From Hormiphora californensis (lineage: Eukaryota; Animalia; Ctenophora), in NCBI GenBank assembly GCA_020137815.1, contig CM035354.1, forward strand, positions 7,750,001 to 7,814,000: DNA of 64,000 nucleotides. Direction: 5' to 3'. The position numbers and the translations under genes were made by a program. Of the stretch, positions 25,478 through 50,167 are shown in pieces. Within the stretch, counting starts at the first letter, position 1. Every line of letters begins with the position of its first letter. Below the pieces are notes generated by a model. It was not told the origin of the DNA. It worked only from the letters and a program-made list of their open reading frames with translations, and made no database searches.

Positions 25478-26908
25478 GACCCAAGACCCAAAATTCGAAT
25501 TTCCACCCTCACACTTTACAACTTAACTTTCGAGAAGCTTAAATGTTAGTTAATAGACACGATAGACTGTTCCTTAAACCCTGTTTAAGTGAACTGCACC
25601 TTCAAAAATCAACAAATGGTGCAAAAAAGGAAAACGTTAAAATCTGGGTGCCTTTCATTGCTAACAATTCGTAGTTTTGGCGCGCGCGACGGGTTAGGGC
25701 TATAAGGAACCATAATAAAGTTCAAGAGCCTCCAAGAGCACCCAAGAGCACCCAAGAGCACATCAGATCAAAGAGGGCACCAGGATCAGGAGACCACCAC
25801 ACTCAGAAGAAGCCACTTCTGAGAGAGCTCCCTATCCAGAAGATACCGCGCGCGGGGGATACCACGCGCAAGAGAGACCACGCGCAAGAGAGACCACGGG
25901 TGTTTTATAACCATCAAAACTTTACCTATGATATTCCTTTCGCGCGTTACGTAACACACCGCTTTTTGCACATGTTGCGGTTTTCAAATTGGTCAATAGC
26001 CAAGTCAGGGCTAATGCTATCAACATTACGGCTAAGGCAACACACTTTTGGAGTACTTCAAACTAGCAGAGATATTTTTCCGTTTAACTGTTCATTAATT
26101 TAGACCAAAAGTGTGTGATAGGGAAAACGCGTTATTTTTTTGTTCCATTCAATTAAATAACACAAGTAAAATCACTTGAAAATAAATCACCACTTGTAAA
26201 TGAAATTCTGTCTACACTCTACTGTGCAAATGTTTAAATGTTAATGTGTCACTTGACTGTTCATGTTATTAATTAAACAGCGGGAAATATATTATGTAGG
26301 TATAGGTTTTGTATTGGAGTTAAGATCACAATTACACTGAAAAATACTCTAGTTGAATTAGGTAATGGTATATAGTTTATAATGTTTATAAACATCTGCA
26401 GTAACACCCGGGTAGAAATAAACGTTCCATTATCTAAAATCTGTAATCCAAAAGTCCATAATCTTAGGGCAACAGTCTCGGTCAGCGGGTAAGGTTCCAA
26501 ACTGTTTTCCCAACACCTGAGAAAGAACATATTAGTTAACACTGGAAAAGGCTTATAGTGCAGTTACATATTAGCTTTCTTGGAAATGGTTAGTGTGGTA
26601 ATGTGGTATAATGCAATATCCTATAATCCCCCAAACTATGATAGAAAGGTGATCTCTCCCACAAAATGATACCACATAATATGGGAAAACAATGTGATTC
26701 TTGATTTTGTTCCCTTGTATTAAGGTGTTGCCCGATTATGATGCCATTAAAATGGTAAATCCGTACCAAGAAAATTGCGGCACGCTGAGATTGGATATAT
26801 CCGAATTCCTACTTGCTTTCTTTGGATTTGTTTGTTCTAATTTTGCTCATAACGAGTCAATAGTAATAACGATTCAATATTAATATAGAGTAAATACCTA
26901 GTATTACC

Positions 26909-29900
26909 TCAGAGTGATTCAAATCGTTCAGTTAGTTCGCGATTGAACACTCCCCACATATTCGTCAGTTGGGCACAGACGAACCCTATTTTGGATATGT
27001 GGTTCTTTATACCGTGACCAACGGTATTCTTCAATACCCTGTATCGCTTCAAGTAACCTATGGTCCTTTCTACGTGGACCCTATAACGACTGATCCCCAT
27101 GCTTTCTGTGGCCTGGGCCCTATCAAATTGGGGTCTTCCTCCCCAGAGACCAGTAGGCATGATAAGGTTAACACCTAAAAATAGAAAAAAATGTTAACCT
27201 CAATCATTATTTTGAGACATCCCCTCGTATATCTCCAACTGGTTAATTTTCTCAGTGGTACTGGTCAGGGTTAAAGAAACTGGCGGTGATGGATGGTACG
27301 GTGGAAGGGCCTAGGAATCGACGGACTGGGCACAGTAACACACTATACGTAGGGTCCCTTTACGGAGGTGTGCTGCTGATATTTCTACTTGACGAGGAGG
27401 CTATGCCCAACTGAACGAACTTGACAATTTGCACCCAACAAAACCTAAAACTGTTACTTTCTGCCTCAAAAATCGAAACAAGAATATCTACATTTAATGT
27501 TTCATACTGCTATGTCCAGACTAAACCAAACTCAAGACTCTCTCAAAGGCATAATGTTACCTAGTTCCAGACTCAGAAGCTGACAAGACAAAAAGCTTGC
27601 GTGAGAGTGCCCCAATACAGACCACAAACAGTTAGAATATCAGAGAAATTTTGTTTGATTTTGGTGTAATTTTGAGCGTGATAGTTTAGCTATACTATCT
27701 TTCATACAGACCACAGACTTTATGACAGGTTGCAACACCGTTCTGTCGTGCGGCAGAGTTTGGTACGCTATAACCTAGAGCCACACACACACACACACAC
27801 ACACACTGCTATGTCTCCCTGCAAACCAAATTCGGGGCTGAAAATTGAAATTGCCTTTTACATATTTATATTACTCAAGCATTATTATAAAGAACAAATC
27901 ATTACGTAGTACATTGTGCGCCGCAATGTGGACCACAATTATGTGTACCACACATTTCCTGAAAACGTTTCAATGAAGATAGAAGTAATGAAGTGATAAA
28001 TTTTGTGAAGATGCAGTTGGTTGCAGTGTGTATGTGTGCTTCTAATTGGTCCTTGCAATTAAAACGGGTGTATCTATCATGGTGGTCATGCTACACACAG
28101 TCAGTTTATCCGTTGAAGATTTCTAAACTTCTTTTTCCATTCGCCCGAATGGGTAAAAATCCTGGCATTATAAATAAATTTTACCTGAAGGAAGTAAGTC
28201 TGTGATCAGAAATCCTCGGTCAACCATTATCTGATCCCCTTCATTGAACTGCCTCAGGAGATGTGATGAAACAACAATAGCTCGGTCGGATGAACTGCCT
28301 GGGTACGCGTCGCTCATGAAAACAATGGATCCACATGGAGCAACTCCAACGAGAAACTTAACACTGTGGAACCCTGTGGGGATTGTGGAGGGGTCATTGC
28401 GGTCGGGAACATAAGGGGCGATTCAAAACGGACGTCCAGGGATAGGAGTAGCCAATTTCGGGCACCTCTGGAAAGAGGAGGGAGGGGGTTGATGGAGTTC
28501 GGACTGTCCCAGGTTTTGAAGAAAAATTTTACTGGTAAACCAATATTGGTTAACTTAAGTTACATGTGGACGAAATTCGGATAGGGAGGAGGGTGGGGGT
28601 CTGGGAAATTCGAACAGGCTTGGACAGAGGGGAGGGAGGGGGTAAAAACGACCAAAAATCATGGACGTCCTTTTTGAGAAGTTACCTTTGTAGTCAGAAT
28701 AAAAGATTCTGCGATCTGCTGGGTTTGAAGGTGGCTCCACCTGCACCTGAAAATAATGATATACAGTCGGACCCCGATTTACCGGGCCCCGATTTACCGG
28801 AACCCCGATTTACCGGGAGGAAAAACTTCCCCCGAGAGAGGAAAGTAACGGTATTTGACCCCGAGAGAGTGATAGCGAGAGGGATAGAGAGAGATAGAGA
28901 GAGATAGAGAGAGAGATAGAGATAAAAAGGGGTCTGCCAGTGCCAAAAGACCAGGAATTGAAAATCACAGCTAATAGGTACTACTAACAATTACCTCAGT
29001 ACAATCCAAAATTATCCGAACATTTGGATAATCAGCGTAAAATCTGGGTGGCGATGTCTCTTGCGCCCTTCTCAATGATGGTACTTGATTACTGCTGATG
29101 GCCCAGAGTTTGTTATGCATCACATCCATCCATGTTTTCCAAATGCTTGTTACTATACTCTCTGAAACCTGTAAAAACAACAGTTGTTTTTTAATTTACT
29201 CTGATTTACCGGACGAAACCCTCTCCACCGAGAATCCCGGTAAATTATAAATGCACGCAGCAATTTTCGAATTGGAGAATAAAACTTACGTGGAACTCGG
29301 CTGCTAACATGCTATCTGAACAGCCCGCCTTAAACTTTTTCAGGGTAATAAAAAGTTGTGTCGATGTATCTAAGAGAGTGGAGGATAAGGATCGATATAT
29401 CGCTGTCAACATGGTATCACCCGGTGATTGAAGAAACTCCAGCAATAAGTAAAACACTGCTTTATTAGGCAGGCCCGTCTGAGATCTGATCTGAAATTGA
29501 AACGTTGTAAAAAAATAAAATTAAAATAATTCTACCCCATGTTTACCTGAGAGTGAACATTTTAGTCGACACGTCTTTATGGACAGATCAGGTTGTAAAT
29601 TCAGGTTGGTGCCTATACGCATTGCTGCTTTCACCCTAAATTACCCTATGGCCTACCATCTGAATTCTGACCACATCTTACTATTTGGATCACATGTCAA
29701 CCACATTCTTGTCACCCAAAATATATATAATATAAACATATATATAAATATCACTGCGCTGGCAAGCGCAAAGGTGACCATATATGTATACATGATATGG
29801 GGGCAAAGGTGTCAGGGTGGGTTATCAAAAGGCCCTTACTTGAGGCGCACCCAATGGGTGCGCTAGTCTCTATTATAATTTGGAGATGTCGCGTCGAAGT

Positions 29901-48267: not shown

Positions 48268-48770
48268 ATTCAAATTCAAATTCAAATTCAAATAAACTGC
48301 ACACAATTCAAACTACCAGCATGCAGTGAAGGGTTGAGAATTGACAACTGTTTTATAGTTTTAATTAAGAACAATTCTGATATAGATTTATACTCTGGGT
48401 GCCACCTGTTATAGTGGAATGTCTACATTCGATGGTGGAGCCCGGGACGTGCGGTTTTATTTATTGATATATTTCTGCCTCTCTGAACTCATTAAGGACC
48501 GTCACATAGCCACGCACCAGTGGTCTGTCATGGAAGTGTTTCTCAACGATTGTTCCATAACCGCGGTGCCCTGAAGCCGAAGGAGTTATACAGTTGGCCT
48601 GCTCGTTTGGCTTCTGCCCAGTAAGGATATTTCTGGATTTTCGACTGTACTCCCAACCGACCTGTCTTGAACTCCATTTCATCACAATTGGGGACAAGCC
48701 CCTGATAGATCTTCCAAACGTGGATTAACTCATACCTTTGGCGTCTCCTCTGAAGGGACATGAGGTCAAG
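48268..48770 (-). mobile_element. 3' fragment of a CR1-group LINE
   Basis: LMSLQRRRQRYELIHVWKIYQGLVPN...NSFGFRAPRLWN. Short (ATTTGA)n tail near 48270-48292. Confidence 0.7.
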
Positions 48771-50167
48771 CGAAGAATTCGGAGGTTGGTAGTGGTAGAG
48801 CGCTGGTGATAAACATCAAGGGAAATCCCGCTGAATAACATAGAATTAGGTGACAAAGAGCCGTAGAATTGTAGTTGTGTAGAGAATCAACGGGTGGGAT
48901 GGTAGAAAGGCTTTGGTAATCATGGCGGCCCCAGCAGTAGATCCCAAAACACCACAGGAACAACAGTACAACACAGGAACACGCAACAAACAACCAATAA
49001 CATGCACGTGCAGTATCCCCCTCCCATACCCTCCCAAGCTACCTCCTTGGCAACCCCCCACCGTGGGATACTCCATACTCATCTTCATCACGACGTTCAT
49101 TTGTACTTTATAATAGAGACTAGAAAGCCCATTGAAGTCCTACAACAGCCCCCCCACCCGTCTCTATGCACCCCCCTCTCACTCTTCGTCTCTCCATGTC
49201 GGGGTAAAGAATAGGGGGTTTGGTATAGTGGTAGAGCGTTGGTGATAAACATCGAGGGAAATCCCGCTGAATAACATGTAGAATCAGGTGGTAAAGATCC
49301 GTAGAATTGTAGTTTTGTAGAGAATCAATGGGGTACGTAGGTAGAAAGGTCACCATCATCATCACGCCACGCATTTGTACTTTATAATATAGATTGTCAG
49401 AATGCATTTTCCATTTCATTCTTCTTCCGCGAAAGCCACGGATAGAGATGGTGACACTTCTGACCATCGAGAAGCTTCAGCGGAGCAGTCACCAATCCCC
49501 ATGACTGTTTCCTGGTTTGCTTGCCTTCGGGGCGCTATTACGATCTGGGTGGTTGGTGGCCTGTTTACAGGTGCGCCCAGCCAAAGCAAAGCATTTGTAC
49601 TAAAATGGCTCTATAACCGCCAAAGTTTGGCGGCCAAACCACTCACCGTTTTGGCTAATCCAAAGTTAATCTGGTAAGATTTGTCACAGCCTAATTCTAA
49701 TCCAAACCCCAACCCTTACTCTGACCCTACATTCGCCCTAACCCTAAAAACCGTGAGTGCTGATACTCCAACCACCCAGATTTTAACGCTGGCCTTCAGT
49801 TCCGCAATGTGTTTTATTGAAAAATTCAAAAAAAATAATAGAATTTTTTAATGGGGCGCGCAAATACAACGCCGCGCTGGTCTCTTCTGCGCGTGGTGTC
49901 CCATGCGCGTGGTATCTTCTGGGTGGGGAGCTCTCTTTGATGTGGTGCGCTCTAGGAGTGGTGTCTTCTGGAGGTGGTGCGCTCTTGAATGCGGTATCTT
50001 CTGAATGTGGTACGCTCTTGGATGTGATACGCTCTTGAATGTGGTGCGCTCTCAGGCGTGGTCTCTCTTCGATGTAGTGCGCTCTTGGGTGCTCTTGGAG
50101 GCTCTTGAACTTTATTATGGTTCCTTATCCGTTAGGGTCTGGTTAGGGTTTGGTTTGGGGTTATCGG

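Follow-up and report, generated by a model that had tools for sequence, protein, structure and literature searches.

An ISL2EU-type transposon with four predicted genes in the ctenophore Hormiphora californensis and the possible roles of its two additional genes

The DNA considered here is a stretch of 64,000 nucleotides from the ctenophore Hormiphora californensis (assembly GCA_020137815.1, contig CM035354.1, positions 7,750,001 to 7,814,000 of the forward strand), referred to below as the window and numbered from its first letter. Between two perfect terminal inverted repeats (TIRs) about 24.4 kb apart lie four predicted genes. Two of these, for a DDE transposase and a YqaJ nuclease, are the genes expected of an ISL2EU-type transposon; the other two are not, one encoding a zinc-finger protein and one a small protein that resembles a methyl-CpG-binding domain (MBD). 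What are they doing there? The answer to which we give about even weight is that an ISL2EU-type element encloses four predicted intact genes, and that the two additional ones form an accessory DNA-binding module by which the element would control or position itself, and not by reading methyl-CpG.

Ends of the element and target site

The first-pass annotation of the window described perfect 46-bp TIRs with AT on both sides, and this was confirmed. Positions 25702-25749 and 50081-50128 match perfectly in inverted orientation over 48 bp, which comprise the TIR and the AT at each end, and the match does not extend outward. It is one of seven perfect, non-simple inverted repeats of at least 30 bp in the window and the only pair that spans the four genes. 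Inside the TIRs is a further inverted, subterminal segment of 76% identity (25771-25884 with 49873-49986), and 12 of the 18 CAAGAG sites in the whole element fall within the two ends (Table 1). A pattern search for the TIR in metagenome contigs gave no matches.

Contigs from four public runs were aligned to positions 21000-30150. One run, X7, carries the same species label and comes from another sample; another, X5, carries the label of a different organism, called organism B here. In X7, 26 contigs ran along the left flank as far as 25703, after which they continued with the right-flank letters from 50129. The same flank-to-flank join, from 25702 and with one base different, was present in 17 contigs of X5. 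In three of the four runs the bin at the junction had a depth of more than 100,000, thus the element is inserted in a host repeat of very high copy number and the joining contigs are copies of that repeat free of the element. They fix the target site as repeat copies and are not tied to this locus; at the site itself the stretch from TIR to TIR plus two bases has been added. Since the flank-to-flank contigs carry the two-base site once, AT is duplicated here. At one site such a duplication with AAGG ends cannot be distinguished from blunt insertion of an element with TAAGG ends between the A and the T, because AT is palindromic.

Transposase, nuclease and classification

All four gene models were spliced by hand with GT-AG introns and contain no internal stops. 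They lie on the minus strand in the order zinc-finger, MBD-like, SWIM-YqaJ and transposase, which is the order that the first-pass annotation gave. In the transposase, DDE_Tnp_4 matched above the Pfam cut-off on two exons (E 1.1e-14 and 7.7e-11). The spacings of the catalytic pattern in the spliced protein, 22, 29, 21, 17, 24 and 3, fit the PHIS signature D(19-29)K(29)D(18-40)D(11-19)P(18-28)R(3)E (PMC4122938), and reproduction of this spacing by the spliced protein thus also serves as a check on the splice model. HTH_Tnp_4 matched weakly (E 0.07 and 0.16). The THAP profile found no match in exons 1 and 2 scanned singly, and a C-x4-C...C-x2-H pattern visible in the model is the sole THAP-like sign.

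The nuclease gene gave YqaJ (PF09588) matches above the Pfam cut-off on two exons (E 2.9e-6 and 2.2e-4), and the nuclease motifs SPDG, EIKC and YxxQxQ are present in the protein. The SWIM match, E 0.0065, was below the cut-off. A nine-exon form ending at 32929 is open, as is the ten-exon form in Table 1. Of the domains that the first-pass annotation named for a profile search, DDE_Tnp_4 and YqaJ were borne out; zf-C2H2 stayed below the cut-off and MBD matched no single exon. A homologue search with the YqaJ exon returned two weak, unrelated matches among 155 candidates, and one with the DDE exon none among 12. Compared with metagenome contigs, the DDE exon found one distant fragment. Eight proteins from the window had no exact database record.

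The pairing of DDE_Tnp_4 with YqaJ together with the AT duplication matches the definition of ISL2EU elements (PMC4482050, PMC9179366), and the predicted proteins thus place the element in this type within the PHIS superfamily, in agreement with the first-pass annotation. The likeness extends to a putative helix-turn-helix, the PHIS spacing, a TIR length within the published 6-259 bp and an animal host (PMC4122938, PMC4482050, PMC9179366). The element differs in having two additional genes where published families have two open reading frames (ORFs), and in its length, 24.4 kb where the published mean is about 4.8 kb (PMC4482050). Its TIRs start with AAGG and not with the usual GG, and the target is T-AT-C and not A-AT-T, these being typical and not strict features of the family. 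YqaJ is the standard partner gene in ISL2EU elements, where its role in transposition is an open question (PMC4482050). Spy elements of the PHIS superfamily, which make no duplication, target AAA/TTT and have a single ORF, were rejected as a candidate class, the target here not being AAATTT and a YqaJ gene being present. Kolobok-type elements, which are said to include forms with YqaJ, were likewise rejected given that the transposase is of the DDE_Tnp_4 kind with PHIS spacing.

The two additional genes and how they may be read

The predicted zinc-finger protein has four fingers of the C2H2/C2HC type, each fitting C-x(1-4)-C-x12-H-x(3-4)-H/C; behind the fingers come a Ser/Pro/His repeat of five residues and the C-terminal tail. 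Finger 3 would be incomplete without splicing over a 5.7-kb intron that contains a long interspersed nuclear element (LINE). Over all six frames, the window has two matches to a stricter finger pattern, and both are in this gene. The zf-C2H2 matches ranged from E 0.003 to 0.1 per exon, and the tail had no Atlas match.

The label MBD given to the second gene by the first-pass annotation has to be lowered to the level of motifs, as it found no backing from Pfam, PDB or fold comparison and none that was significant from pairwise alignment. The gene model itself has good splice sites, all six being at the 97.6-99.97th percentile of a matrix for which the other 17 introns were the training set. A shorter form of three exons, which ends at a stop at 38151, likewise has an open frame; it was rejected because the donor and acceptor that give four exons are strong. 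The MBD profile (PF01429) matched no exon, the domain being split over two exons that were each scanned alone. Exon 3 had no match among 1.84 billion representatives and none in the Atlas, and a PDB sequence search with exons 3 and 2 found nothing. A fold model of the half domain placed a helix where expected (pLDDT, the predicted local distance difference test, 70), with a best Foldseek E of 1.3, a best Z of 2.7 and no MBD listed. The last exon, 37675-37755, encodes a basic tail with four cysteines, C-x2-C-x5-C-x-C, which has no Pfam match.

Two references were used for comparison, the MeCP2 domain and a locus called L004 (Pfam 49 bits), the one true MBD obtained from a motif scan of genome contigs; five such scans of viral contigs had given two false loci. 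L004 (180-434) is a clear MBD gene on a contig of a bacterial metagenome-assembled genome and probably represents eukaryotic contamination. The MBD-like protein aligned with it free of gaps over 46 columns, from the Trp to the helix Leu. The structural motifs of an MBD were recognisable by eye and by pattern: the Trp, an Arg seven residues on, a basic start of strand 1, the helix and an F-[DN]-F hairpin, present here as FNF (motif as in PMC8811898). A loose pattern built from them, chosen post hoc, matched only the MBD-like exons on both strands of the window and gave 42 matches in 1,585 shuffled strands. Compared by eye with MeCP2, the protein retains the W and the equivalents of R111 (R30), Y123 (Y45), K135 and L138, while D121 is replaced by Thr43 and R133 by Phe55, so that two of the four methyl-CpG contact residues are kept, assuming the splice model and the gap-free register. 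The replaced residues, or both arginines, are central to methyl-CpG recognition (PMC8811898, PMC5240623). An MBD-type fold for the 104-aa protein is thus plausible but unproven, and even if the fold is right the reading of methyl-CpG is unlikely because two of the four contact residues are replaced.

How would an accessory module made of these two proteins work? By analogy with known families, binding of the TIRs, excision of the element and its insertion at AT would fall to the DDE transposase, and YqaJ would probably process the DNA ends. With its four fingers and low-complexity tail, the zinc-finger protein is built like a sequence-specific transcription factor and would bind the DNA of the element itself, for example the subterminal repeats, thereby driving or tuning expression. 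The 104-aa protein probably retains the MBD-type fold and, blind to methylation, could serve as an adaptor that tethers the element's proteins to DNA or chromatin. Consistent with such a module, the four open genes lie head to tail on one strand with the same kind of splice sites, the additional genes retain their introns, and finger 3 is formed exactly over the intron with the LINE.

Several observations weigh against a module. Only one full copy of the element was seen, so that the additional genes may or may not travel with the family. The gene models are hand-made predictions from the genomic sequence. The codon use of the MBD-like model was equalled by 44% of 2,000 null strings and did not separate it from non-coding controls, and its score of 23 against L004 was reached by 11,434 of 20,000 shuffles. 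The CpG ratio was 0.29-0.55 in seven of ten host ORFs and 0.68-0.79 in the coding sequences of YqaJ, transposase and MBD-like gene (0.79 in the last, 11 observed for 13.9 expected, which are small counts); the zinc-finger coding sequence, at 0.54 without its repeat and again from small counts, was more host-like, as would be the case after recent capture. These ratios lend weak support to a methylated host and to the view that the zinc-finger gene was captured more recently.

The first alternative is that a two-gene ISL2EU element took up a block of one or two host genes once, in the manner of Pack-TE elements, and that the reading frames are open because the uptake is recent, the genes having no function for the element. 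The single copy and the host-like CpG ratio of the zinc-finger gene would suit this, as would the tendency of the element to collect inserted DNA (8.2 kb of nested sequence) and the two ORFs of published families. However, both additional genes are whole, contain several exons, share the orientation of the core pair and have kept their frames despite insertions into their introns, the LINE included, and the CpG ratio of the MBD-like coding sequence is that of the element. We consider such a capture possible but somewhat unlikely.

That the 104-aa protein is a working methyl-CpG reader, which together with the zinc-finger protein would lift silencing as VANC does or steer insertion to methylated DNA in the manner of CopiaMBD, appears improbable. 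Retention of the R111 and Y123 equivalents speaks for it, and the mostly CpG-depleted host ORFs suggest a methylated genome. The short repeated motifs at the ends recall VANC targets (PMC6719617), and there are precedents in CopiaMBD (PMC6673714), in PHIS elements that carry TET genes (PMC12730594) and in the Harbinger-derived proteins HDP1/2, which act with MBD7 (PMC5339849). The replacements at D121 and R133 nevertheless argue against methyl-CpG reading, and membership in the MBD family is statistically unproven.

CopiaMBD of arthropods also encodes an MBD-type domain, proposed to influence the insertion site, but it is a long terminal repeat retrotransposon with the MBD in its integrase polyprotein and with binding to methylated CpG shown (PMC6673714); here a stand-alone spliced gene, predicted from the sequence, sits in a DNA transposon and two key residues are replaced. 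The TET-carrying fungal DNA transposons, PHISTA among them, likewise include PHIS-superfamily elements with an extra chromatin-related gene, but their cargo is a dioxygenase that modifies 5-methylcytosine and they make TA duplications (PMC12730594), whereas the element in the window encodes no enzyme as cargo beyond YqaJ. VANDAL elements of Arabidopsis have an accessory gene inside a DNA transposon, with short repeated motifs as its possible target, but belong to another superfamily and kingdom, and the anti-silencing shown for VANC in Arabidopsis (PMC6719617) is only a guess here. MBD-type motifs without the full set of methyl-CpG contacts are found in the methylation-blind proteins SETDB, BAZ2 and MBD3 (PMC6673714). 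Those are large host proteins, in contrast to a 104-aa protein borne by an element and having a four-cysteine tail. MBD5/6 are reportedly also MBD-fold proteins that are blind to methylation. With capture of chromatin readers by transposons described elsewhere too (bioRxiv 10.1101/2021.11.30.470311), such capture is a recurring theme and the idea is not new in kind, while this ISL2EU gene set appears undescribed: the literature search, which did not extend to Repbase, Dfam or bioRxiv supplements, found no ISL2EU element with extra zinc-finger or MBD genes.

It is decidedly improbable that a second nested element, with inverted repeats of 270 bp and 86% identity (38478-38746 and 49079-49346) as its ends, contains the zinc-finger gene and that the MBD-like gene is a chance reading. 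The inverted pair does bracket the zinc-finger gene, and the MBD-like model lacks a database match and a codon signal. Against this, the pair is the sole internal one able to bound the additional genes and the only sign of a target duplication around it is a 2-base match in one of six end pairs, a result that also favours the accessory module. Both arms, moreover, are mosaics of sub-repeats running past the supposed ends, and the left arm lies inside intron 2 of the MBD-like gene, whose six splice sites are all in the top 2.4%. Finally, the proposal that would have undone the first-pass annotation, namely that the TIRs are ends of two independent short elements (miniature inverted-repeat transposable elements) around resident host genes, can hardly be credited in spite of the distance between the TIRs and the lack of a second full copy, given that the two flanks are halves of one repeat that other contigs carry without a break, that a complete transposase-YqaJ pair lies inside and that the window holds no matching second end for either TIR.

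Returning to the accessory module, a further step may be put forward only tentatively: this animal lineage may contain a four-gene ISL2EU family in which the zinc-finger protein and a stand-alone MBD-fold protein are a stable, selected module for self-activation and chromatin targeting, derived from a repurposed methyl-DNA reader and following the logic of VANC and CopiaMBD.

Size, copies and genomic setting

The first-pass annotation called the element giant. It is 24,423 bp long, but four nested pieces absent from that annotation (the LINE, a foldback, a 783-bp insert and a 926-bp insert in an intron) account for 8,183 bp and all coding sequence for 3,906 bp, and the great length thus stems from introns and later insertions. 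The genes tolerate the insertions because all of these fall in introns or spacers. The remaining 16.2 kb is still above the 1.3-7.1 kb of published ISL2EU elements (18 of 25 table rows); introns and small repeats make up most of the excess.

Table 1. Positions of the ends, genes and nested insertions of the element in the window.
Feature	Position	Strand	Basis
AT target-site copy, left	25702..25703	.	sequence; single copy in element-free repeat copies
Left TIR, 46 bp, begins AAGG	25704..25749	+	inverted match
Left subterminal region, short CAAGAG-type repeats, 76% inverted match to right end	25750..25900	+	
Transposase gene, 7 exons, 397 aa; THAP-like N-terminus, HTH, DDE	26909..32119	-	hand splice model; DDE_Tnp_4 matches
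Transposase exons	32119-31962, 31842-31698, 29490-29290, 29168-28995, 28746-28686, 28373-28185, 27174-26909	-	
Insert in transposase intron 6, 926 bp, contains 292-bp high-copy repeat	27207..28132	.	X5 contig bridges without insert
Foldback nested in intron 2 of the transposase gene, arms of 607 bp, 98% alike	30184..31502	.	
SWIM-YqaJ nuclease gene, 10 exons, ~473 aa	32619..36393	-	hand splice model; Pfam; motifs
SWIM-YqaJ exons	36393-36322, 36137-36030, 35853-35730, 35510-35387, 35215-35028, 34562-34371, 34030-33897, 33635-33347, 33086-32940, 32659-32619	-	
MBD-like gene, 4 exons (39444-39394, 39138-39050, 38265-38172, 37755-37675), 104 aa	37675..39444	-	hand splice model
Nested 783-bp element, 79% inverted arms of 11-bp repeats	40033..40815	.	
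Zinc-finger gene, 4 exons (47920-47803, 47592-47474, 41749-41624, 41499-40885), 325 aa	40885..47920	-	hand splice model
LINE nested in intron 2 of the zinc-finger gene, with a long (CA)n tract on each side; ORF2 and part of an esterase-type ORF1	42303..47457	+	
Right subterminal repeats	49870..50080	-	
Right TIR, 46 bp	50081..50126	-	
AT target-site copy, right	50127..50128	.	sequence; element-free repeat copies

ORF2 of the LINE (43265-46903) is open over 1,212 codons and encodes an endonuclease and reverse transcriptase. The CA tracts on either side are about 350 bp each, and the LINE lies in the CA run of a 292-bp repeat, the other copy of which is at 27515-27806; the LINE may target CA microsatellites. 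The foldback has near-perfect arms around a GA tract and itself splits a high-copy repeat. Two mosaics of common sub-repeats, 38117-38915 and 48773-49393, are 85% alike, mutually inverted and not seen elsewhere in the window. They sit around exon 3 of the MBD-like gene and upstream of the zinc-finger gene, and could be binding arrays specific to the element or a dispersed repeat.

Other samples gave partial views of the element. X5 contains a second copy of the transposase, about 99% identical and lacking one nested insert, a 569-nt contig bridging transposase intron 6 without 27207-28132. In the same organism B, among the longest pieces listed, those of the element (26230-28626) were about 99% identical to the window as against about 91-93% for two flank pieces (21304-24374), a difference which could point to recent transfer between species. 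In run X2, element contigs of 1,387, 455 and 806 nt showed no differences and had depths of 165-200. Flank contigs specific to one allele had depths of 146-195 and most shared contigs 292-428. The element thus has a depth like that of the allele-specific flanks and about half that of most shared contigs, which, depth not being copy number, is only a hint of one hemizygous copy. X7 and X8, the latter likewise with the same species label and from another sample, contained 0.01 of the words of 31600-36500, and in X7 there was no cover in 5 of 14 bins internal to the element compared with none of 15 flank bins; the X7 pattern fits absence of the element without proving it. Run X9, by guess an RNA run, showed depth in 7 of 30 bins.

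Genes are dense in the window, which is animal DNA. To the left of the element are NPRL3, a G-protein-coupled receptor bearing LDLa, a REC114-like gene and MGM101, and to the right a serpin and a Methyltransf_28 gene. For the LEO1 gene the best 7 of 70 matches were to proteins without a name and had 54-77% identity, and named bilaterian and cnidarian matches 34-56%. The REC114-like and MGM101 genes, of recombination and DNA-annealing families, are adjacent single-frame genes (23498-24814) just left of the insertion. Elsewhere a 34-bp tandem array of about 98 copies occupies 4676-8001, and two similar tandem single-frame ORFs at 8339-10752 look like S-adenosylmethionine methyltransferases.

Both plants (VANC) and fungi (TET cargo) provide documented examples of DNA transposons that manage host chromatin through accessory proteins, and certain retrotransposons of arthropods encode an MBD; in the literature searched no such case was found for animal ISL2EU elements. 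The apparently intact four-gene copy described here would offer a testable system both for the role of YqaJ in ISL2EU transposition and for regulators that animal DNA transposons may carry for themselves. If the additional genes are passengers, the element would still be a clear example of whole genes with several exons being moved by a TIR element in an animal.

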